Positions 3,426 through 59,444 of a stretch of DNA of 64,000 bases are shown here, one piece after another. Position numbers and translations under genes: made by a program. Under the pieces are notes generated by a model. The model did not search any database and was not told the DNA's origin. It saw only the letters and a list, made by a program, of their open reading frames with translations. This stretch comes from an uncultured Oscillospiraceae bacterium. Lineage in GTDB: Bacteria > Bacillota > Clostridia > Oscillospirales > Oscillospiraceae. The stretch spans positions 11,661-75,660 of the forward strand of contig CANQFV010000007.1 of the NCBI GenBank assembly GCA_947599875.1, given 5' to 3'. Position 1 is the stretch's first letter. Each line of letters begins with the position of its first letter.

Positions 3426-4619
3426 ATGATTTCCGCAAAAATGCTGAAGATGACCGAGGGGGGCAGCGCCATACGCGCCATGTTTGAGGAGGGGGCGCGG
3501 CTGGCCGCCAAGTACGGACGGGAGAACGTCTACGATTTCTCCCTGGGGAACCCCAATATCCCGGCGCCGGAGAAGGTCAGGCGCGAGATCGTCCGCATCG
3601 CCAGCGAGACGGATCCGATGGAGCTTCACGGCTACATGTCCAACGCCGGCTACCCGGAGACAAGGGCGCGGGTGGCGCAGTCCCTGAACCGCCGGTTCGG
3701 CACGGATTTCCACACCGACAGCATCCTGATGACCGTGGGCGCCGCGGGGGGACTGAACGTGCTGCTCAAGACGCTCTTAAACCCCGGGGACGAGGTGCTT
3801 GTATTCGCCCCGTACTTTTTGGAGTACGGCAACTATGTGTCCAACTTTGACGGGGTGCTGAAGGCCGTCCCCGCCAACATCGCCGGGCGCTTCCAGCCGG
3901 ACGCCCAGGCCCTCCGGGAGGCCCTGACGGAGAGGACGAAGGCTCTGATCCTGAATAACCCCAACAACCCCACCGGGGTCATCTACACGGAGGAGTCCCT
4001 CCGGGCCGTGGCGGCCGTGCTGGAGGAGGCGGAGCGCCGGTTCGGGCACCCCATCTACCTCCTCTCCGATGAGCCGTACCGGGAGCTTGCCTATGACGGA
4101 CGGGTGACGCCCTGGCCCACCGGCTTTTACCGGGACACGCTTGTGTGCTACTCCTGGTCGAAGTCCCTGTCCCTGCCCGGGGAGCGCATCGGCTATATCG
4201 CCATCCCCCCGGCGTGCGCGGACGCCAAGCTGATCTTTGACGCGGCGGTGATTGCCAACCGCATCCTGGGCTTTGTCAACGCCCCCAGCCTCCAGCAGAA
4301 GCTGGTGGCGGAGTGCCTGGAGGAGGGGACGGATCTGGCGGCCTACGACAAAAACCGCAGGGCGCTGTACGAGGGCCTCACGAGGGTGGGCTTTGACTGC
4401 GTCTATCCCGACGGGGCCTTCTATATGTGGGTCAGGACGCCGGGGGACGACAACGAGTTTGTCAAGCGCGCCAAGGATCACAACATCCTGGTGGTCCCGG
4501 GGTCCAGCTTCGCCTGCCCGGGGTATGTGCGCATCGCCTACTGCGTGAGCTACGACACCATCGTCCGCTCCCTCCCGGCCTTTGAAAAGCTGGCCGCGGA
4601 GTACGGACTTTCAAAATAA
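3426..4619 (+). CDS. pyridoxal-phosphate-dependent aminotransferase, class I/II (aspartate/alanine type)
   Basis: IRAMFEEG...YDFSLGNPN...NNPNNPTG...SWSKSLSLPGERIGY (PLP lysine). The start MISAKM fits the family better than the GTG at 3384. Confidence 0.88.
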   Translation: MISAKMLKMTEGGSAIRAMFEEGARLAAKYGRENVYDFSLGNPNIPAPEKVRREIVRIASETDPMELHGYMSNAGYPETRARVAQSLNRRFGTDFHTDSILMTVGAAGGLNVLLKTLLNPGDEVLVFAPYFLEYGNYVSNFDGVLKAVPANIAGRFQPDAQALREALTERTKALILNNPNNPTGVIYTEESLRAVAAVLEEAERRFGHPIYLLSDEPYRELAYDGRVTPWPTGFYRDTLVCYSWSKSLSLPGERIGYIAIPPACADAKLIFDAAVIANRILGFVNAPSLQQKLVAECLEEGTDLAAYDKNRRALYEGLTRVGFDCVYPDGAFYMWVRTPGDDNEFVKRAKDHNILVVPGSSFACPGYVRIAYCVSYDTIVRSLPAFEKLAAEYGLSK

Positions 4620-24542: not shown

Positions 24543-24571
24543 TTGACAGCCCCGGCAGGGGATGGTATAAT
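24543..24571 (+). promoter_or_regulatory. consensus sigma-A promoter of cysK
   Basis: TTGACA (24543-24548), 17 nt, TATAAT (24566-24571). Confidence 0.65.
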
Positions 24572-38848: not shown

Positions 38849-38864
38849 TCCGCAATAGAAAAAA

Positions 38865-38894
38865 GAGCCGCCCGGCATCCGGCGGCTCTTTTTT
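38865..38894. terminator. bidirectional rho-independent terminator
   Basis: AAAAAA-GAGCCGCC...GGCGGCTC-TTTTTT. Confidence 0.75.
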
Positions 38895-38974
38895 CTTGCC
38901 TGAAACCCCCTTTGCATGATACAGTGGGGTCATCAGAAAATAATCTGTGTCAAAACACAAAGGAGGACTTTACC

Positions 38975-39895
38975 ATGACAACTCGCACCATCACACCGGA
39001 GGCTGTGGCGGGATTCCGGGCGCAGCTCATCGCCAACTCATGCAGCGTTCACACCATCGGACGGTATCTCCACGACGTGATCAGCTACTCCGCCTTTTTA
39101 GGCGGGCAGGAGGTGACTTCGGAAACCACCTACGCCTACAAACAGAGCTTAGTTGACCGGGAGTACAAGCCATCCAGCATCAACACGATTCTGGCTTCCC
39201 TCTTCGCTTTCTTCAGTTTCATGAAGTGGATTGACTGCGGCACCCAGCGGATGATCATTCAACGAACCACTTACCTCCCGGAGGAAAAGGTTCTCACCGA
39301 GAAGGAGTACGGGAAGCTCCTGAAAGCCGCCAAGAACCCCCGGGATCGGCTGCTCCTGGAAACCCTCTGCTCCAGCGGGATACGAGTGTCCGAGCTGCGC
39401 TACTTCACCGTGGAGGCCGTGAAGCGACGGGACGTGGGCGTACTTTGTAAGCGCAAGAATCGAAGCGTCATCATGCCGGAGGCGCTTTGCGTCAAGTTGG
39501 AGAAGTTCGCAAAGGAGCGGGGCATCACCTCCGGGGTCATCTTCCGGGGCCAAAAGGGGCGGCCCTTAGGCCGCAAGCGCATCTGGGCCATCATGAAGGA
39601 GACGGCCGAGCGGGCCGGGGTTTTGGCCTCCAAGGTGCATCCCCACAACCTCCGCAAACTCTTCGCAAGAACCTTCCTCAAGAACGGCGGGGATATGCCC
39701 CAGCTCTCTGACGTTTTAGGCCACAGCAGCATCGAGACAACCAGAATCTATATCAAGTCCACAGGGGATGAGCATCGGAAGCTCATCAACAGCTTAGGAC
39801 TCCTATACCGGGAGGAGGAGACGCCAAAAACAATAACAAAGAACCCCTCCCGGAAGAAGTCCAGGAGGGGGAAGAAGAAAAAGAGACATTATTGA
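38975..39895 (+). CDS. tyrosine site-specific recombinase (XerC/D-integrase family), candidate invertase
   Basis: R...HPHNLRKLFA...LGHSSIETTRIY catalytic motifs. Highly basic C-terminal tail. AGGAGG RBS. The stop codon lies inside the left inverted repeat. Confidence 0.9.
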   Translation: MTTRTITPEAVAGFRAQLIANSCSVHTIGRYLHDVISYSAFLGGQEVTSETTYAYKQSLVDREYKPSSINTILASLFAFFSFMKWIDCGTQRMIIQRTTYLPEEKVLTEKEYGKLLKAAKNPRDRLLLETLCSSGIRVSELRYFTVEAVKRRDVGVLCKRKNRSVIMPEALCVKLEKFAKERGITSGVIFRGQKGRPLGRKRIWAIMKETAERAGVLASKVHPHNLRKLFARTFLKNGGDMPQLSDVLGHSSIETTRIYIKSTGDEHRKLINSLGLLYREEETPKTITKNPSRKKSRRGKKKKRHY

Positions 39896-39908
39896 TATAA
39901 TGTCCATT
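39885..39908. repeat. left inverted repeat / lox-like recombination site
   Basis: GACATTATTGATATAATGTCCATT. Arms GACATTA/TAATGTC around the spacer TTGATA. Confidence 0.85.
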
Positions 39909-39954
39909 AGGTCGCGATGGGGAAGCGCAAGCCTAACGAAATTCTTCGGTACTT

Positions 39955-39982
39955 ATTATAGCCGAAAACCTTAAAATGTCAA
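39955..39982 (-). promoter_or_regulatory. near-consensus sigma-A promoter inside the invertible segment (currently pointing left)
   Basis: Minus strand TTGACA (39982-39977), 16 nt, TATAAT (39960-39955). Confidence 0.6.
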
Positions 39983-40156
39983 GTGCCGTTAGGCAAATTC
40001 CCCGAAAAAAATGAAAAAGACCACGCCGCGACGCACTCTGGAGCTTTCCGGAAAACGGAAAGGGGCCAGGGTGAGCGTCAGCGTACCCTCAGGTGTTCAC
40101 CTCGCTAAAGTACGAGTGGAAGAAGTACCTAAGACAACCCAAGAGAACGACAGAAA

Positions 40157-40180
40157 AATGGACATTATATCAATAATGTC
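40157..40180. repeat. right inverted repeat / lox-like recombination site
   Basis: AATGGACATTATATCAATAATGTC is the exact reverse complement of 39885-39908. The spacer is TATCAA. Embedded in a 34-nt palindrome (40154-40187). Confidence 0.85.
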
Positions 40181-40289
40181 CATTTTTCGCGTGGGGAGGG
40201 GCAGGTCAAAAGGCGATTCTTCCATCTTTTTATGCACCAAGACGAGGCCGGAGGAGGAGCCTCCGGGAAAGAACATCAGGAGGGCAGAC

Positions 40290-41831
40290 ATGAAACAAAA
40301 TTCTTCAACAGAAAAAAGCAAAAACCGTGGCTTCACGTTAGTGGAGCTGATCGTCGTGATCGCGATCCTGGCGATTCTCTCCGCCGTGGGCGCGGTGGCC
40401 TACACGGGGTACATTGAGTACACCAAAAAGGGTCTGGACAAGCAGACCGTGGGGGAGATCATCCACGCAATAGAGCTGGCCAATTACGACGACCCCAGTT
40501 TGTTTGAAACTGGAGCCACCGTGTACATAACCAAGGACGGCGTAAAGAGCGACAGAGCAGAAGTTGACGCAGCCCTTGCGCGTGCCTTGGGCGACCTATC
40601 CACAGTCAAGCTCGCCTATGAAGGCTGGCCGCTGGAGGACTTTTCCGAAAGCATTAAAAACGGATTTCAAGGTCTTATGGACGATACCAATTCAAAGGCA
40701 AATGCGTATTGGGATGCAGTCAACACTAACGGCAAAGCGGCGACCTTTGCGGCGGATGTGGACGACCTCTGGGCGCATTTCACGTCGTTGAAAGATTCTC
40801 CCTTCTGGGATGAGGACAATTTTGGGAAAGCCGTTCAAATGAGCAACGATAAGCAGGAAGCAATCATTTCGGCATGGACAGAAGGCAAGTCATTTCTTGA
40901 TGAATCTATAGACCCGGGAAAAAAGGCTTATCTTGCGCTCTCTATGGCAAGAAACTATTCCTTCGCTGCTTACGCGGAGAAAAACGCTGTCTTGACCGAT
41001 GAAATGAAAGAAGAGCTTGACAAATTTAAGCTCAGCAGCGGCTCTTTCGGTACTGAAATGTTGGAAAAGGGGAAAGAAAAAACCGATATTTTGCAGAGTT
41101 CGGGATGGAAAGATGTTATTGCCGCGTACTATGCTGACGAAGCTCAATTAAAATCTGACGCACTGGGCTATCTGGCAATCATGGAGGCCGCGGATGTCAT
41201 CGCGGAGGGCAAGCCATTGGAGATGACGTCTGACGACTTTGTAAACGCTATGGAGCCGCACCTGGGCACAGTTTCCAACACGCTCACAAAGGGAAAAGCC
41301 GCTCTTAAACAGGCAATTAACATTACTGGAAAACACGCGCAGATTTCAGTTGCCAAGAATGCCGACGGAACCGTCACCTGCAAGCCCCGTCCTTCTGATC
41401 TTGACCCGAGGAAGGATGGCAGCAACGGAAGTACCGGTGGTGAATCGAGTAATGTTCCCACGCAAGAGGCAAAGAATGTTACTGTTAATTGGGATAGCGG
41501 AACTATCACCACTGAATCCGGCACAAATGTGATCGCTGTTAAATCGGGTGGAACAGCCACTATTTCGTTCCCCAAAGATAGCATTGGCAATTCTCCAATT
41601 ACTGAGTTTACCTGCAACGGTAATACATACAAATATGAAGGTACCCTCATAAATGGAAAGACTTTTGACATCGACAACGGAACGGTTAAAGTACAAATGA
41701 ATGCGAGTACCACAAGGCTTACATTTACCGGGACAGGGGAAGCTGGATCATCGTCAACTATTTCGCTCTCGGTAAAATGTGATAATGGCACCAGCAAAAC
41801 ATTTAACTTTACATTCTGGATTATTGAATAA
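40290..41831 (+). CDS. large prepilin-type N-terminal cleavage/methylation domain protein (orphan pilin-like, 513 aa)
   Basis: MKQNSSTEKSKNRG/FTLVELIVVIAILAIL (G-1, F+1, E+5). CAGGAGGG RBS. The ORF stays open upstream to 40011, but that extension crosses the repeat. Confidence 0.8.
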   Translation: MKQNSSTEKSKNRGFTLVELIVVIAILAILSAVGAVAYTGYIEYTKKGLDKQTVGEIIHAIELANYDDPSLFETGATVYITKDGVKSDRAEVDAALARALGDLSTVKLAYEGWPLEDFSESIKNGFQGLMDDTNSKANAYWDAVNTNGKAATFAADVDDLWAHFTSLKDSPFWDEDNFGKAVQMSNDKQEAIISAWTEGKSFLDESIDPGKKAYLALSMARNYSFAAYAEKNAVLTDEMKEELDKFKLSSGSFGTEMLEKGKEKTDILQSSGWKDVIAAYYADEAQLKSDALGYLAIMEAADVIAEGKPLEMTSDDFVNAMEPHLGTVSNTLTKGKAALKQAINITGKHAQISVAKNADGTVTCKPRPSDLDPRKDGSNGSTGGESSNVPTQEAKNVTVNWDSGTITTESGTNVIAVKSGGTATISFPKDSIGNSPITEFTCNGNTYKYEGTLINGKTFDIDNGTVKVQMNASTTRLTFTGTGEAGSSSTISLSVKCDNGTSKTFNFTFWIIE

Positions 41832-41875
41832 AGGTTACACCGTGATACACCGGGACGGTTCTTTCATAATCCCCC

Positions 41876-41905
41876 GAGGGCCAGGTACACCTGTACCTGG
41901 CCCTC
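41876..41905. terminator. stem-loop between convergent pilin-like and amidotransferase genes
   Basis: GAGGGCCAGGTACA-CC-TGTACCTGGCCCTC (14-bp stem). Confidence 0.5.
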
Positions 41906-42835: not shown

Positions 42836-43147
42836 ATGATGAGCCTGATTTTGGCGAACGCACGCTGGGCGGGGGATTATCTCCTGTCCGTCCCGGAGTG
42901 TGTGGCGAATGATCTTGATGGGGTCAGGCGCGATTTTTACGCGTGGCTCGACGATGAGGATGACAGCCACGGGTACCGGGAGAAGATTATTGAGGGCCGC
43001 CCCCGGAAGGTTTATTTTATGGACGGCCGGGACGATCTTTGCGGCGCGGAGGTTTTCGTGGCGTGGCTCAACGGTGTGGTCCTGAGGGACTCCGGCGAGA
43101 GGGCGGCCATCCTGCCCAGGGTGGAATTATACGAATCCGAGGAGTAA
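42836..43147 (+). CDS. small acidic protein, paralog 1 of 3 (unknown family)
   Basis: 103 aa with an AAGGAGGGG RBS. Shares DFYAWL...FVAWLN..VLRDSGERAAILPRVE with paralogs 2 and 3. Confidence 0.7.
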   Translation: MMSLILANARWAGDYLLSVPECVANDLDGVRRDFYAWLDDEDDSHGYREKIIEGRPRKVYFMDGRDDLCGAEVFVAWLNGVVLRDSGERAAILPRVELYESEE

Positions 43148-43172: not shown

Positions 43173-43475
43173 GTGGGCTTGATTTTGACAAATACGCATC
43201 CGCTTCTGGCGGGGGCGTGCTACCTTGTCTACGTTCCGGACAGCATCGAGCGCGACCTGGACAGGGTGAAAAGCGACTTCTTCGCCTGGATCAACGACGG
43301 CGGCGACGGTCACGGATACTGTGGAAGTCCGATCTTTGGGGTGAGGAAGGTCTATTACCGCAGAGGGAATGAGGAACTGATTGGCGCGGCGGCGTTTGTG
43401 GCCTGGCTCAACGACTTCGTCCTGAGGGACTCCGGGGAGAGGGCCGCCGTGCTGCCCAGGGTGGATTTTGATTGA
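43173..43475 (+). CDS. small acidic protein, paralog 2 of 3
   Basis: GTG start after AAAGGAGG. 100 aa with the C-terminal FVAWLNDFVLRDSGERAAVLPRVDFD. Confidence 0.7.
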   Translation: MGLILTNTHPLLAGACYLVYVPDSIERDLDRVKSDFFAWINDGGDGHGYCGSPIFGVRKVYYRRGNEELIGAAAFVAWLNDFVLRDSGERAAVLPRVDFD

Positions 43476-43500
43476 CGCGGCGACAGAGGAGGGAGCGCAC

Positions 43501-43782
43501 ATGAGCCTTGTATGGATCAACGAGGGGCAGAACGGGTACGACATTTTGTCTGTCCCGGCGTTCATCGCGGAGGATCTGAGCAAGTATATCGGGGATTTTT
43601 ACGATTGGCTGAGAGGCAGGGACGGCGATAACGGGCACCGGAAGCATGTGGATGACGAGAGCGGCTCCTTTGACTGCCTTTGCTACGACGGCGCCACCGA
43701 TTTTCCCCGGTGGCTGAATGAGACCGTTCTGAAGGATTCCGCCGAGAAGGCGCACCTTCTGCCGAGGATCGAGTTTGAATAA
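43501..43782 (+). CDS. small acidic protein, paralog 3 of 3 (most divergent)
   Basis: ATG after GAGGAGGGAG. 93 aa with DFYDWL...FPRWLNETVLKDSAEKAHLLPRIEFE. Confidence 0.65.
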   Translation: MSLVWINEGQNGYDILSVPAFIAEDLSKYIGDFYDWLRGRDGDNGHRKHVDDESGSFDCLCYDGATDFPRWLNETVLKDSAEKAHLLPRIEFE

Positions 43783-43892
43783 GTTTTTTCTATATTGTCA
43801 AAAAATTTCCCCCTCTCCCGCAACCGGAGAGGGGGAAAACGGTACTTATAGGGGTGAAGGATCCTGATATACCGAGGAGAGGAGGCGAAGGC

Positions 43893-44447
43893 GTGGAGGA
43901 CGAGGCGATCATTGACCTCTATTTTGCCCGGGACGAGCGGGCGCTCAGGGAGACGGAGGCCAAGTACGGCCCCCTCTGCCGCCAGGTGGCGGGCAACATT
44001 CTGGGGACGCCCCAGGACACGGAGGAGTGTCTCAACGACGTGTACCTGGCGCTCTGGGAGGCCATCCCCCCGGCGAGGCCCCGGAGCCTGAAGGCCTTCG
44101 CCTCCGGCGTCACACGCCGCCAGGCTCTGAAAAGGCTCCGCCACGACACCGCCGGGAAGCGCTCCGCCGGGTGTCTGGTGCCCCTGTCGGAGCTTGCGGA
44201 GGTTCTGCCGGACGAGGGCTTCAGACCGGATGTGGAGGACGGGGAGCTGGCGCGGCTCATCGGGAGCTTCCTCAAAAAGCAGACTCCCGAGGCTCGGTGC
44301 GTCTTCATCCGCCGGTACTGGTACTTCGACTCCGTGCGGGACATCGCCGGACGGTACGGTTTCAGCGAAAACAAGGTGAAATCCCTTCTGTTTCGCGGGC
44401 GGAACCGTCTGAGAGACTATCTGAGAAAGGAAGGCATTACCCTATGA
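43893..44447 (+). CDS. ECF-type RNA polymerase sigma-70 family factor
   Basis: Regions 2 and 4 (AIIDLYFARDE...DVYLALW...; VRDIAGRYGFSENKVKSLLFRGRNRLR). GTG 43893 follows GAGGAGAGGAGG. The track start is 43854. Confidence 0.85.
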   Translation: MEDEAIIDLYFARDERALRETEAKYGPLCRQVAGNILGTPQDTEECLNDVYLALWEAIPPARPRSLKAFASGVTRRQALKRLRHDTAGKRSAGCLVPLSELAEVLPDEGFRPDVEDGELARLIGSFLKKQTPEARCVFIRRYWYFDSVRDIAGRYGFSENKVKSLLFRGRNRLRDYLRKEGITL

Positions 44448-45844: not shown

Positions 45845-46945
45845 TCAGGCCTTGAAAGGGGCAAAATACGCCGCGATCTGACGCATCCGATCCTCCTGCT
45901 TCACATGGAAGGGACAGCGGCTTTCGCAGTGGCCGCAGTGGAGGCAGTCGGAGGCGTGGACAGGGAGCTTCTGGTAATGTCCTTTCGCCAGCTCGTCGCC
46001 GGCGCGGGCCAGGTCGTAGTATTTGTTGATGAGGCCCACGTTCAGGCCGGCGGGGCAGGGCTGACAGTGGTTGCAGTAGACGCACACGCCCTCGGCGTCC
46101 CGGGGTGTGAAGCGGCTGATGTCCGAATAGTCCAGCTCCTCGGGCGCGGCGTCTATGTAGTGGAGTACGGTCTCAAGGTCAGCCATGTCCCGGACACCGG
46201 GGAGAACCGTCAGCACGGCGGGGCGGTCCAGGGCGTACTGGAAGCACTGAACATGGGTGAGAGCGTGACCGAAAAGGGAGCGTTTTTCATCCAGGAGCTG
46301 GCCTCCGGCGAAGGGCTTCATCACGGAGATGCCCACGCCCATCCTCTCGCAGTCCCGGTAAAGGGCGGCGCGCTGGGCGACCTCGCCGATGGCGTATTCG
46401 CCCTTTTGATAGTCGTAGGCCGGGTTGATGCTGAACATGAATAGGTCGATGAGGCCGGTGTCCAGGACTCGCCTGGCGATAGTGGGGTCGTGGGAGGAAA
46501 AGCCCAGGTGCCGGATGACGCCGTCCGCCTTGAGGCCCCTCATGTAGTCCCAGAGGCCGCCGTTCAGCACCTCGTCCAAATCCTCCATATCATCCACGCA
46601 GTGGATGAAGCCGAAGTCCGTATAATCCATCTTGAGGGTGCGGAAATTCCAGGCAATCTGCTCCTTGATCTCGTCAAGGTCGCGGGTCCAGCCATACTCG
46701 CCGGTTTTGTAGATCGCGCCGAAGTGCATCTGGGTGAGGATCTTATCCCGCCTCCCGGCGAAAGCCTCCGCGTAGGCGAAAAAGGGCGCCTGGACGGAGG
46801 GGGCCAGGTCAAAATAGTTGATTCCGCTCTCAATGGCGGCGTTCAGCACGGCGGCCATCTCGTCCTTCGTGCCGGAGAGGCTCCCGGCGCCGAGGCCGAT
46901 GACGCTTATCTTCTCGCCCCCGTGGGGCAGTGTGCGATATTCCAT
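45845..46945 (-). CDS. aldo/keto reductase with C-terminal 4Fe-4S ferredoxin-type cluster motifs (copy A)
   Basis: AKR N-terminus (YRTLPHGGEKISVIGLG) and C-terminal CNHCQPCP...CLHCGHCESRCP. Over 90% identical by eye to 57493..58593. Confidence 0.88.
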   Translation of the reverse strand: MEYRTLPHGGEKISVIGLGAGSLSGTKDEMAAVLNAAIESGINYFDLAPSVQAPFFAYAEAFAGRRDKILTQMHFGAIYKTGEYGWTRDLDEIKEQIAWNFRTLKMDYTDFGFIHCVDDMEDLDEVLNGGLWDYMRGLKADGVIRHLGFSSHDPTIARRVLDTGLIDLFMFSINPAYDYQKGEYAIGEVAQRAALYRDCERMGVGISVMKPFAGGQLLDEKRSLFGHALTHVQCFQYALDRPAVLTVLPGVRDMADLETVLHYIDAAPEELDYSDISRFTPRDAEGVCVYCNHCQPCPAGLNVGLINKYYDLARAGDELAKGHYQKLPVHASDCLHCGHCESRCPFHVKQEDRMRQIAAYFAPFKA

Positions 46946-46955
46946 ATGTACCTCC

Positions 46956-47429
46956 TCACTCCAGGGACAGGGTGATGGTCACGTCGCCGTTTGAGAGAAG
47001 CCCGGCCATCTCCTCATCCGATTTGTCCATGATGTGCCCGAGCCGCGTGTACGCCCAGGAGTTGGAGCCGTAGAATATCACGATCTGGTCGCCGGAGTAC
47101 AGCACGATGTCGCCGGACTGCGTCACGGTCTGCACATCGTTTCGCGGGAGAGCTGACCCCAGATATCCCACCTGCTCGAACCCGCCGTACATGGACATTT
47201 GAACCGTGATGGGTCCGTCCTGAACGAGCTTTCGGAGGGTCGCGACGGATTCGTTGTCCTCCCAGCTAACCGAAACGTCCATATTGCCGATCCGCATTTT
47301 TAATGTATCGTCCATTTGAGTATCCTCCGGTTTCGTTGAATCCTTGCCTCCCGCCGTGTCCCCGCGCCCGCACGCCGCGAGGGCAAAAATCAAGGCGGAG
47401 ACCAGCAGAAAAATGGTGATCTTTTTCAT
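46956..47429 (-). CDS. cyclophilin-like-fold lipoprotein (copy A)
   Basis: Lipobox ALAAC. VSVSWEDNESV...MYGGFEQVG...GDIVLYSGDQIVIFYGSNSW. Paralog of 58971..59444. Confidence 0.72.
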   Translation of the reverse strand: MKKITIFLLVSALIFALAACGRGDTAGGKDSTKPEDTQMDDTLKMRIGNMDVSVSWEDNESVATLRKLVQDGPITVQMSMYGGFEQVGYLGSALPRNDVQTVTQSGDIVLYSGDQIVIFYGSNSWAYTRLGHIMDKSDEEMAGLLSNGDVTITLSLE

Positions 47430-47941
47430 ATCATGCCTTCCAGAAGGTTTATTGAGCAACCTAAATTATACCCGCCCCGCCCCCGGTTGTAAAGGGCGAA
47501 GTGATCAGGCGTATTGATTTGTGGCGTGGAGCCGATGTAGTTATCCGTTGGAAAGCCGAAATCCGGCCCGCACCCGGCCCTATGGAGCGATGCCAGCTCG
47601 CGGCCGAAGGTTTCCCAGTAATCCCGCCGGCGCGGGGCGGGGGAGAGGTATTCCATGATCAAAAACGACTCTGTTTTATCTGCTCCGACTGCCAGCGGCT
47701 CCGGCACGCCGATGACGCCAGGCTCCCTCAGCGCCTCCAGCCCCCGCGCCTCGGCGGTGAACATGTTCCGAAGCCCCGGCCGGTTGCACTTGAGGAACAC
47801 GGCCTCCCCGTTAGAAAGCTCCAGCCGGTACGTCCGGTTGATGTCCCCGCCGGACACCCGCCGCCGGTCAACGACCCTGGCCGCCGGGCCGAAAAGGGCG
47901 AGGATCGCCCCATCTACCGAATTTGCGGACAGCACGTTCAT
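47426..47941 (-). pseudogene. fructosamine/ketosamine kinase family gene, N-terminal fragment only (copy A)
   Basis: Matches aa 1 to about 143 of the intact paralog 59611..60483 up to DNYIGSTPQ, then unrelated sequence. About 0.5 kb deleted relative to copy B. Confidence 0.75.
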
Positions 47942-57492: not shown

Positions 57493-58593
57493 TCAGAGAG
57501 TGTAAGAAGCGAAATACTCCGCAATCTCCCTCATCCTGTCCTCCTGCTTCACATGGAACGGACAGCGACTCTCGCAATGTCCGCAGTGGAGGCAGTCGGA
57601 GGCGTGGAGGGGGAGGTTGAGGTAGTGGTTCTTCGCCAGCTCGTCGCCGACGCGGGCGAGGTCGTAATATTTGTTGATGAGGCCAACATTCAGGCCGGCG
57701 GGGCAGGGCTGGCAGTGGTTGCAGTAGACGCACACGCCCTCGGCGTCCTGTGGCGTGAAGTGGCTGATGTCCGAATAGTCCAGCTCCTCCGGCGCAGCGT
57801 CCATGTAGTGGAGCACGGTTTTGAGGTCCGCCATGTCCCGGACGCCGGGAAGCACGGTCAGTACGGCGGGGCGATCCAGAGCGTACTGGAAACACTGGAC
57901 GTGGGTGAGGGCGTGGCCGAAAAGGGAGCGTTTTTCGTCAAGGAGCTGGCCTCCGGCGAAGGGCTTCATCACCGAGATGCCCACGCCCATCCTCTCGCAA
58001 TCCCGGTAAAGGGCGGCGCGCTGGGCGACCTCGCCGATGGCGTACTCGCCCTTTTGGTAGTCGTAGGCGGGATTGATGCTGAACATGAATAAATCGATGA
58101 GCCCGGTGTCCAGAACCCGCCTCGCGATGGTGGGGTCGTGGGAGGAGAAGCCCAGGTGACGGATGACGCCGTCCGCCTTGAGACCCTTCATGTAGTCCCA
58201 GAGCCCGCCGTTCAGGACCTCGTCAAGGTCCTCCACGTCGTCCACGCAGTGGATGAAGCCGAAGTCCGTATAATCCATCTTCAGCGTGCGGAAATTCCAA
58301 GCGATCTGCTCCTTGATTTCGTCAAGGTCGCGAGTCCAGCCGTACTCGCCGGTTTTGTAGATCGCGCCGAAGTGCATCTGGGTGAGGATTTTATCCCGCC
58401 TCCCGGAGAAAGCCTCCGCGTAGGCATACCAGGGCGCTTCGACGGACGGTGCAAGGTCAAAGTAGTTGATTCCGTTCCCGATTGCGGCGTTCAGCACGGC
58501 GACCATCTCGTCCTTCGTGCCCGAAAGACTCCCGGCACCAAGGCCGATGACGCTTATTTTCTCGCCCCCGTGGGGCAGTGTGCGATATTCCAT
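57493..58593 (-). CDS. aldo/keto reductase with C-terminal 4Fe-4S motifs (copy B)
   Basis: Paralog of 45845..46945. Start chosen at MEYRTLPHGG as in copy A. Confidence 0.88.
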   Translation of the reverse strand: MEYRTLPHGGEKISVIGLGAGSLSGTKDEMVAVLNAAIGNGINYFDLAPSVEAPWYAYAEAFSGRRDKILTQMHFGAIYKTGEYGWTRDLDEIKEQIAWNFRTLKMDYTDFGFIHCVDDVEDLDEVLNGGLWDYMKGLKADGVIRHLGFSSHDPTIARRVLDTGLIDLFMFSINPAYDYQKGEYAIGEVAQRAALYRDCERMGVGISVMKPFAGGQLLDEKRSLFGHALTHVQCFQYALDRPAVLTVLPGVRDMADLKTVLHYMDAAPEELDYSDISHFTPQDAEGVCVYCNHCQPCPAGLNVGLINKYYDLARVGDELAKNHYLNLPLHASDCLHCGHCESRCPFHVKQEDRMREIAEYFASYTL

Positions 58594-58629
58594 ATGTACC
58601 TCCGAAAAATCCATGTCAGGTGGGCAAGA

Positions 58630-58956
58630 TCAGTCTTCTTTCCACACATCCTTGGCCAGCCGGAACACCGCCCACGCCTTGGGCCAGCCGACGTAGAAGC
58701 CCACATGGGTCACGATGGCGGCGATCTCCTCCCGTGTCACGCCGTGGCCCTTGGCGTTTTCCAGGTGGTAAATGAGGGACGAGTCGGTGATGCCGGAGCT
58801 CATCAGCGCCACAACGGTGATGATACAGCGGGTCTTCAGGTCGATGTCCTGGTTGTTCCAGTTTTCGCCGAAGAGCACGTCGTCGTTGAAGTGGGCAAAG
58901 TCCGGCGCGAAATTGCCGAGCTGGTCTCTGCCCGCGGTTTGAGTGATTTTTTCCAT
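58630..58956 (-). CDS. carboxymuconolactone decarboxylase (CMD/AhpD-like) family protein
   Basis: LKTRCIITVVALMSSG...HLENAKGHGVTREEIAAIVTHVGFYVGWP. Present only in copy B. Confidence 0.82.
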   Translation of the reverse strand: MEKITQTAGRDQLGNFAPDFAHFNDDVLFGENWNNQDIDLKTRCIITVVALMSSGITDSSLIYHLENAKGHGVTREEIAAIVTHVGFYVGWPKAWAVFRLAKDVWKED

Positions 58957-58970
58957 GTGAAACCTCCTCG

Positions 58971-59444
58971 TTATTCCAGAGACAGGGTGATGACTACGTC
59001 GCCGTTTGAGAGCAGCCGCGCCATCTCCTCATCCGATTTGTCCATGATATGTCCGAGCCGTGTGTACGCCCAGGAGTTGGAGCCGTAGAACACCACGATC
59101 TGGTCGCCGGAGTAGAGCACGATGTCGCCGCTCCGCGTCACGGTCTGCGTGTCGTTTCGAGGCAAATCGGTGCCGAGGTACCCCACCTGCTCGAACCCGC
59201 CGTACATGGACATCCGCACCGTGACCGGCCCATCTTTGGCGAGCTCCCGCAGCGTCTCAACGGACTCGTTTTCCTCCCATTCCACCGAAACGTCCGTGTC
59301 GTTGATCCTCATTTTCAATGTCCCGTCCACTTGTATTTCCTCCTCGTCTGTTGTGGATGTCTCCTCTTGTGCCTCCCCACCGGAGCATGATGCGATAGAG
59401 AGAAGCAAGAAGGGGAGAAACAGTAAAATCGTGAGTTTTTTCAT
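58971..59444 (-). CDS. cyclophilin-like-fold lipoprotein (copy B)
   Basis: Lipobox SIASC. Paralog of 46956..47429. Confidence 0.72.
   Translation of the reverse strand: MKKLTILLFLPFLLLSIASCSGGEAQEETSTTDEEEIQVDGTLKMRINDTDVSVEWEENESVETLRELAKDGPVTVRMSMYGGFEQVGYLGTDLPRNDTQTVTRSGDIVLYSGDQIVVFYGSNSWAYTRLGHIMDKSDEEMARLLSNGDVVITLSLE

Follow-up and report, generated by a model that had tools for sequence, protein, structure and literature searches.

In this article, I will describe a candidate promoter inverton in a 64,000-nucleotide stretch of DNA from an uncultured Oscillospiraceae bacterium (contig CANQFV010000007.1, positions 11,661 to 75,660; hereafter the window, with all coordinates counted from its first letter), in which the gene for a Xer-like tyrosine recombinase and the gene for a prepilin-type protein are separated by a 248-bp segment that is bracketed by inverted repeats (IRs) and holds a consensus promoter. 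An initial annotation, made from the letters of the sequence alone, had pointed to this arrangement as a promoter switch for the pilin-like gene, and the follow-up given here argues that the locus is very probably a functional phase-variation switch that was assembled in its OFF state.

The recombinase, its candidate sites and the segment between them

The recombinase gene (38975-39895, plus strand) encodes a presumed invertase of 306 amino acids (aa), has the ribosome binding site (RBS) AAGGAGG at 38960-38966 and starts with the ATG at 38975, a start that is backed by the identical NCBI protein P0248. Judged by its sequence, the product is a member of the tyrosine recombinase (Xer/integrase) superfamily, with a Pfam Phage_integrase domain (PF00589, 3e-27) and a SAM-like N domain; in an alignment to Pyrococcus XerA (4a8e) the Arg, His-x-x-Arg, His and Tyr residues are kept, as are the motifs GIRVSEL, HPHNLR, LGHS and RIY, and the catalytic motif positions are invariant across the recombinase family alignment A4. 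In NCBIfam, the best matches are to the equivalogs of chromosome dimer resolution and all fall under the curated cut-offs (XerA 154 versus 220 bits, XerD 126 versus 330, XerC 119 versus 335), and the models named 'tyrosine-type DNA invertase' match weakly as well (33 bits versus a cut-off of 221). The window holds no second recombinase of the same family, and exact-protein look-ups for the window recombinase and for the NCBI-only relatives P0001, P0003 and P0134 returned no match.

The stop codon of this gene (TGA, 39893-39895) lies within the left recombination site, just as the initial annotation had placed it, and forms part of its centre; this is the only point at which that site overlaps coding DNA; since the repeat is exact at the stop codon, inversion would leave the recombinase protein unchanged. 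The repeat itself is an inverted pair of GACATTATTGATATAATGTCCATT, at 39885-39908 on the plus strand and 40157-40180 on the minus strand, which matches at 24 of 24 positions with 0 mismatches and extends to 32 nt at 94% identity (left site, IRL, 39877-39908; right site, IRR, 40157-40188), leaving an inter-arm gap of 248 nt. No third copy occurs in the window at up to 3 mismatches, and none was met in 100 dinucleotide-preserving shuffles; the exactness of the pair is far beyond chance, and the earlier claim of a perfect repeat around 248 bp withstood both the mismatch search and the shuffles.

Each site is an internal palindrome of the form (G)GACATTAT-NNNN-ATAATGTC(C), with its asymmetry confined to the central 4 nt, which read TGAT on the left (39893-39896, in a palindromic core at 39884-39905) and ATCA on the right (40169-40172), and in the assembled state the right site forms a perfect 16-bp palindrome, GAAAAATGGACATTAT/ATAATGTCCATTTTTC (40153-40188). 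The two centres are mutually inverted, and the sites align only when inverted, at an assumed overlap of 4, 6 or 8 bp alike. In Cre, FLP and Xer systems, such inverted-site geometry leads to inversion by the tyrosine recombinase, and the inverted asymmetric centres at this locus likewise predict inversion rather than excision. The opposed spacers that had been proposed are real, with their asymmetric part being the central 4 nt. Repeats within the coding sequence, as in gene-altering inversion of the shufflon type, were not found at the locus, both sites preceding the start codon of the cargo.

The segment (39909-40156) is homologous to those of nine other loci when all are promoter-oriented (alignment A1), and an Rfam search of it found no family. 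On its minus strand it carries a predicted sigma-70/SigA-type promoter, TTGACA-16-TATAAT (39955-39982; -35 at 39982-39977, -10 at 39960-39955), which agrees with the consensus at 12 of 12 positions and now points toward the recombinase gene, bearing out the earlier report of a near-consensus minus-strand promoter that faces away from the pilin-like gene. It is the one perfect match in 38.7-42.2 kb and one of 2 in the whole window, the other (TTGACA-N16-18-TATAAT) being at 24543 on the plus strand. Between the right site and the ATG of the pilin-like gene, no other promoter-like site is found on the plus strand. Three features of a fimS-type inverton, namely a short non-coding segment flanked by IRs, a nearby recombinase and an internal consensus promoter, the last as a prediction, are present.

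From a putative transcription start site (TSS) near 39948, a conserved leader runs on the minus strand through to the left site (39909-39948, GGCTTGCGCTTCCCCATCGCG), with the block GAAGAATTTCGTG.GGCTTGCG.TTTCCC conserved in A1. Beyond it, the minus strand has the core hairpin of the left site and then TCTTTTTC (in the OFF transcript, the hairpin and then UCUUUUUC), followed by a GC-rich hairpin with a T-rich run at 39870-39844 (11 pairs, 8 of them G-C) that lies within the recombinase gene, in its lysine-rich 3' end, reappears in the predicted fold of the OFF transcript and is the presumed terminator of that transcript. Since these terminator-like hairpins with T-runs come just past the left site, the promoter in the OFF state probably yields just a short RNA and not a long antisense transcript; antisense transcription into the 3' end of the recombinase gene, as initially proposed, keeps its direction and probably loses its reach. 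The GC-rich hairpin has counterparts at loci L004, L008, L017, L018 and L002, and the other OFF loci have, toward the recombinase, an IR hairpin with GCGTTATTTTTTT, often joined by a second GC-rich hairpin.

The prepilin-type cargo and the homologous cassettes

The cargo gene (40290-41831, plus strand) encodes 513 aa and has the RBS AGGAGG at 40278-40283, six bases 5' of its ATG; the identical protein is annotated from 40290 in ENA contigs. Its N-terminus, MKQNSSTEKSKNRG/FTLVELIVVIAILAIL, is that of a class III signal (MKQNSSTEKSKNRG/FTLVE), with a short basic leader, Gly-1, Phe+1, Glu+5 and a hydrophobic helix, and this prepilin motif is the sole family signal in the protein (Pfam N_methyl, PF07963, 4e-9; TIGR02532 above cut-off). 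In an AlphaFold2 model from 57 homologues, with a predicted local distance difference test score (pLDDT) of 85, the protein has a long N-terminal helix and a large novel domain consisting of helices only; a flexible linker and, at the C-terminus, an immunoglobulin (Ig)-like beta-sandwich complete it. Sequence matches to solved pilins are limited to the N-terminal helix, with nothing past residue ~48, the Ig-like matches that Foldseek returned for the last ~105 residues were all weak, and a globular alpha-beta pilin head domain was found neither by sequence nor by fold in Foldseek and the AlphaFold2 model. With the N-terminal helix as its only pilin-like part, the cargo is best called prepilin-type, yet no recognisable pilin beyond its N-terminus, and the earlier label of a pilin-like protein holds for that end and not for a pilin head.

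NCBI annotates the gene as P0242 (606 aa, 40011-41831, plus strand), a call that starts at 40011 within the invertible segment and reads through the right site, so that its N-terminus would change upon inversion. By comparison of sequences this long start is almost certainly wrong, because the ENA call and all homologues begin at 40290 behind the strong RBS.

The cargo is hypervariable and the recombinase conserved, down to ~40% cargo identity beside a 98%-identical recombinase. That pair, P0134 and P0001, lies on one 86,417-bp NCBI contig, the percentages being those of its recombinase and pilin-like protein against the window's, and further cargo alleles from the same sample series (P0122-P0127) have 56-71% identity. 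Recombinases of cluster P0001 (P0243-P0250) are found on nine contigs. A more distant homologue of the cargo, P0201 (28% identity; L121-L124), was met in 46 collection blocks; it has no recombinase beside it and shares an operon with an N_methyl+CHAP protein, a DUF5658 gene and an ADP-ribosyltransferase-toxin-like gene; considered as a further switch, this locus was rejected, no switch being present.

The homologous loci come from rabbit-gut Oscillospiraceae/Clostridia assemblies, and ten of them (the window, L002, L004, L008, L009, L011, L017, L018, L020 and L119) share the order of a Xer-like tyrosine recombinase, an IR, a segment of 213-289 bp, an IR and an N_methyl gene. They have in common an 18-nt core, ACATTAT(T/A)GATATAATGT, with recombinases that are only 56-64% identical; relatives of the window recombinase were met at 53-64% identity. 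A scan with this core of one genome per species, covering 185,579 species, found paired inverted cores 213-289 bp apart only in the metagenome-assembled genomes (MAGs) of L004, L008, L009, L011, L017, L018 and L020, and each pair has a recombinase homologue on one side and, on the other, an N_methyl gene of 359-574 aa; one MAG has three such cassettes and another has two. Locus L002 has the same gene order, with a 29-nt IR of the same core around 258 bp and a perfect TTGACA-16-TATAAT facing the N_methyl gene, and the cassette at L119/L120 was reached via recombinase P0007. L040 is probably another, its contig ending within the segment. Scans of JGI metagenomes and of IMG/VR with the 18-nt core gave single matches only, apparently by chance.

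When oriented by their promoters, the segments align over their full length in A1 with a mean column identity of 61%, with the -35 TTGAC and -10 TAnnAT invariant and a conserved leader of ~45 nt. The promoter points toward the recombinase in 8 of the 10 loci, the window included, and toward the pilin-like gene in 2 (L002 and L119), in a mirrored geometry that puts the -10 at 45-51 nt from the faced site. This is the expected picture of an inverton family, in which homologous segments lie either way round between one and the same pair of gene families; together with the ten-locus conservation, the two orientations support, at the level of sequence, the initial proposal of a promoter switch between recombinase and pilin-like gene.

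More distant relatives were met in IMG/VR contigs, where recombinases at 40-49% identity (~279 aa) are directly followed by IRs of 21-27 nt that lie 224-338 bp apart, mostly with the core design ACATAAT-NNNN-ATTATGT, with promoter-like sites in either direction and with unrelated cargo. One of the contigs examined, L139, has three copies of a site core at 3834-4151 (ACGGAATGGTAATTCCGT at 3834-3860 and 3879-3896, and an inverted copy at 4125-4151), which could allow two alternative inversions. On the IMG/VR contigs L135, L137, L138, L141, L146 and L147, the related recombinase gene lies at the very edge of the contig or of the region predicted to be viral, a position that suggests either assembly breaks at the switch or a pipeline that uses 'integrases' as prophage borders. 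On a 2,073-bp ENA contig, P0253 is a 240-aa variant of recombinase P0002 that is without the catalytic region from His-x-x-Arg to Tyr and has its tail in another frame, and its switch may be naturally locked. A DUF5658 gene and/or a 455-aa protein of unknown family follows the pilin-like gene in four places (L113 1-2604, L125 3506-6029, L011 5791-6126 and L017 4591-4932); these cassettes adjoin genes of mobile elements, in one case those of a Mu-type transposase and an S24/helix-turn-helix (HTH) repressor, in another that of a large serine recombinase, and the window cassette has none of these.

Proposed mechanism and competing explanations

In the proposed mechanism, the adjacent Xer-like recombinase would bind both palindromic sites (GGACATTAT-NNNN-ATAATGTCC) and exchange strands in an overlap region of 6-8 bp, whose sole asymmetry, TGAT/ATCA, is inverted between the sites, and recombination would flip the 248-bp segment. 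The flipped state would have the predicted new junctions ATAATGTCCATT/TTTCTGTCGTTCTCTTG and CCCCATCGCGACCT/AATGGACATTATATC, and reads spanning them would show ATAATGTCCATT/TTTCTGTCGTTCTCTTGGG and GCTTCCCCATCGCGACCT/AATGGACATTATATCAATAATGTCCATTTTTCGCG. In the OFF state, transcription would begin near 39948 on the minus strand and give a short transcript, expected at 75-110 nt, running through the left-site hairpin and its T-run to the GC-rich hairpin and its T-run; in the ON state, the -35 would lie at ~40083 and the TSS at ~40117, and transcription would read through the right site into the pilin-like gene, with the ATG ~170 nt downstream. The cargo would be a hypervariable prepilin-type surface protein, and recombinase, switch and cargo would together form a self-contained low-GC cassette that is present two or three times in related genomes. 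The sequences show the anatomy of the locus, its conservation and, among homologous loci, both orientations; inversion in the source organism, the agency of the adjacent recombinase, the activity of the promoter and the display of the product at the surface are what I infer.

The family has one further regularity: past the core, the sequence at the leader end of the segment is similar, in direct orientation, to the flank beyond the opposite site. Once the segment is inverted, the leader in the RNA would be followed by its complement, and the two would fold into a long hairpin tipped by the IR. In the window the partner is the pilin-side flank TTTCGCGTGGGGAGGGGCAGGTC (40185-40211, plus strand); alignment of the arms gives z=6.2 for the window and 2.1-3.7 at a further six OFF loci, and for the L119 mirror pair the value is 5.5. 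Duplex energies were taken per locus against shuffles, and the leader-flank duplex reaches -50 kcal/mol in the window (z=-8.2), with z-values of -3.9 to -8.2 in 8 of the 10 loci, and virtual ON RNAs have predicted folds of -45 to -60 kcal/mol. In L002 and L119, which are assembled ON, the stronger complement is on the recombinase side, where the hairpin would be followed by a U-run. RNAalifold on the virtual ON transcripts gave partial consensus only, because MAFFT aligns the divergent flanks poorly. In the more distant relatives of the recombinase the leader/flank similarity was absent, which argues that the complementarity is no artefact of the measure. It may act at the RNA level in one orientation, as a 5' stabiliser or terminator, may bias the direction of recombination through arm asymmetry, or may reflect the avoidance of a long DNA palindrome.

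Several observations weigh against a working promoter switch. No single locus was found in both orientations, the locus of P0008 being OFF in 5 of 5 assemblies and that of P0007 ON in 2 of 2; this fits strongly biased switching, which is compatible because consensus assemblies display the majority state only, and is equally expected of a locked element. Two of the P0008-locus assemblies (L114 3477/3784 and L117 1297/1604) have unequal centres, TGAT versus AGAT-type, which should impair recombination in those strains, compared with TGAT in both sites in the three other assemblies and AGAT in both at the P0007 locus. The assembled state separates the leader from its best complement in every locus, which a simple inversion model does not predict. 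In the window, the right site is followed by TTTTTC, which could attenuate transcription in the ON state, a T-run that is missing from most other loci. Type IV pilus machinery was not seen among the Pfam-annotated genes within ~8 kb on either side, and no second open reading frame (ORF) with a prepilin motif occurs in the 64 kb; the cargo would need a prepilin peptidase and assembly machinery encoded elsewhere. Nor do contig ends mark the switch cleanly: among short-read contigs from other samples, matching the window at 99.7-100% identity, one stops at 39827 and another begins at 40262, breaks that fall 50-74 nt outside the IRs and not at their inner edges. At this identity the strain occurs in assemblies ERZ27249462 and ERZ27249467 and in runs ERR10663698, ERR10663699 and ERR10663701.

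Such breaks had been considered as proof of an inversion bubble and were rejected as such, given that the break points are outside the IRs. Even so, the contig ends at 39827 and 40262, three Logan contigs that stop at 38924 and the lack, in the collection searched, of any contig with the full recombinase gene for the exact window product suggest heterogeneity around the switch, with the hypervariability of the cargo as an alternative cause. Contigs carrying cargo allele P0124 end ~46 nt before the expected position of the site.

The single orientation of each locus across its consensus assemblies is what one would also expect of a fixed module that has lost inversion or never had it. Its internal promoter would make a short, terminated regulatory RNA, antisense to transcripts that run on out of the recombinase gene and complementary in part to the 5' untranslated region (UTR) of the pilin gene, and its sites would serve as terminators or as binding sites for the recombinase or a regulator. 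The complementarity of the leader to the pilin-side flank, the predicted brevity of the OFF transcript and the perfect, terminator-like palindrome of the right site would suit it too. However, it leaves unexplained why the segment has the opposite orientation and mirrored geometry in L002 and L119, why an intact tyrosine recombinase with its catalytic residues is constantly adjacent and why an inverted 4-nt centre alone is retained between the sites, and relatives have the same module without the leader/flank complementarity; I give this explanation only a small chance.

The low-GC island that holds recombinase, switch and cargo (38900-41900, ~41-57% GC versus 59-70% in the flanks) raises the question of whether the sites belong instead to a mobile 3-kb cassette, as attachment or resolution sites in the manner of dif and integrative mobile elements exploiting Xer (IMEX) or of integrons. 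The Xer/integron-integrase-like recombinase, the several copies per genome and the frequent neighbourhood of mobile-element genes would agree with such a cassette, as would three Logan contigs from different runs that stop at 38924, just within the left border of the island. Direct orientation at element borders, as expected of att sites, is nevertheless not what the sites have, both lying inside the island at 272 bp from each other with centres that predict inversion and not excision, with no third site in the window and with a conserved promoter and no gene between them, and I regard mobility of this kind as quite improbable. Short, non-coding and ending in inverted repeats, the segment also has the look of a miniature non-autonomous transposable element that had landed between two genes by chance. 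Yet it is present once in 64 kb, its paired copies in the genomes of the species scan occur only beside recombinase and N_methyl genes, no target-site duplication is visible and the repeat is an internally palindromic site of the recombinase type, which leaves this reading with next to no probability.

A promoter inverton thus remains by far the preferred explanation, and a bolder extension of it can be offered tentatively, as one that is rather doubtful at present: the multi-copy cassettes may give uncultured gut Oscillospiraceae a combinatorial repertoire of phase-variable prepilin-type adhesins, governed by a two-layer switch in which inversion both moves the promoter and places the leader beside its complement, so that a long RNA hairpin would form in one state only (as a 5' stabiliser of the mRNA on the pilin side or a terminator on the recombinase side), or in which the asymmetry of the arms would bias the direction of recombination.

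Known switches and the surroundings of the cassette

The closest textbook counterpart is fimS of Escherichia coli, a 314-bp invertible promoter segment flanked by IRs and flipped by the adjacent FimB and FimE to turn type 1 fimbriae on and off. The window shares with it the short IR-flanked promoter segment, the adjacent tyrosine recombinase and a gene of putative surface-fibre type, whereas fimS has 9-bp IRs, needs IHF and Lrp, relies on two recombinases of ~200 aa, one of them directional, and controls chaperone-usher cargo. Bacteroides genomes contain many invertible promoters that vary the cell surface combinatorially, and those of the capsular polysaccharides (Mpi, Tsr), with several invertons per genome, recall the two or three same-core cassettes per MAG seen here; they differ in phylum, in the use of Mpi, a master recombinase of the serine type, or of tyrosine recombinases that are shared, in their Bacteroidetes-type promoters and in their polysaccharide cargo. 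The sites resemble those of Cre/loxP, FLP/FRT and Xer/dif in having inverted arms around a short, asymmetric and directional overlap, with a Xer-type recombinase to go with them, but the arms are symmetric for 9 nt around 4 asymmetric central nt, unlike in these designs, and, in contrast to Xer/dif, a single recombinase takes the place of XerC plus XerD and inversion would take that of resolution.

Among Firmicutes, the RecV switches of Clostridioides difficile (cwpV, flgB, cmrRST, pdcB) are similar in size and likewise join a tyrosine recombinase to surface or signalling genes. However, RecV is encoded away from its targets and acts in trans on several of them, whereas a cassette of the window type has its own recombinase, and the promoters of cwpV and flgB lie outside the segment, whereas that of the window lies inside; at cwpV it is the formation of an RNA terminator that depends on orientation (PMC5903667, PMC9286219). 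A survey with PhaseFinderDC has described a read-validated Clostridia 'inverton group 139' with a tyrosine 'invertase group 35', in which a tyrosine recombinase is nearly always nearby, the examples having IRs of 14-26 nt with 206-228 nt between them, and the state of one member, in the Oscillospiraceae genus Intestinimonas, differs between mucin-attached and planktonic cells (PMC11892184). Intestinimonas butyriciproducens DSM 26588 offers an example at 1750639-1750893. Compared by description and not by sequence, the window agrees with this group in geometry and taxonomy; pilin-type cargo goes unmentioned there. Site-specific inversion also alters the expression or type of type IV pilins through Piv of Moraxella (tfpQ/I) and the R64 shufflon (Rci/PilV) (cited in PMC5903667 and PMC9881135), but these systems swap pilin coding segments, whereas in the window a promoter would be flipped and the coding sequence left untouched.

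The class of mechanism is classical, a promoter inverton with a tyrosine recombinase encoded in cis. In the literature searched, no promoter inverton before a prepilin-type gene is described, and to that extent the earlier suggestion of a cargo not known to be phase-variable stands; the breadth of its novelty does not, because inversion-controlled pilins (Piv, R64 shufflon) and catalogued Clostridia invertons exist (PMC11892184). Within that literature, what appear new are the cargo family of ~500 aa, hypervariable, prepilin-type and of unknown fold, the self-contained multi-copy cassette, the design of the sites and the leader/flank complementarity. Phase variation is well charted in Bacteroides and C. 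difficile and hardly so in the abundant, mostly uncultured Oscillospiraceae, and the cassette can be searched and scored in metagenomes by its own recombinase, the core ACATTAT-NNNN-ATAATGT, the promoter segment of ~250 bp and the prepilin-type cargo. The locus also points to a pilin-like family of ~500 aa without a known fold as candidate variable surface or adhesion factors, and the leader/flank complementarity, if functional, would couple DNA inversion to RNA structure.

As to the surroundings, the island of ~3 kb is bounded on one side by a hydrolase gene with its terminator and on the other by a convergent peptidase C26 gene. The terminator, at 38857-38896, is a perfect 16-bp hairpin with A and T runs, bidirectional in appearance, that marks the left border. 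Beyond the right side, three tandem paralogous ORFs of ~100 aa on the plus strand (42836-43147, 43173-43475 and 43468-43782), the first without a Pfam match, precede the gene of an extracytoplasmic function (ECF)-type sigma factor (43854-44447). Further on, the window contains a segmental duplication with aldo/keto reductase and cyclophilin-like genes (45845-47459 and 57493-59444, 82-90% identity), which surfaced when contig L001 matched the window twice.

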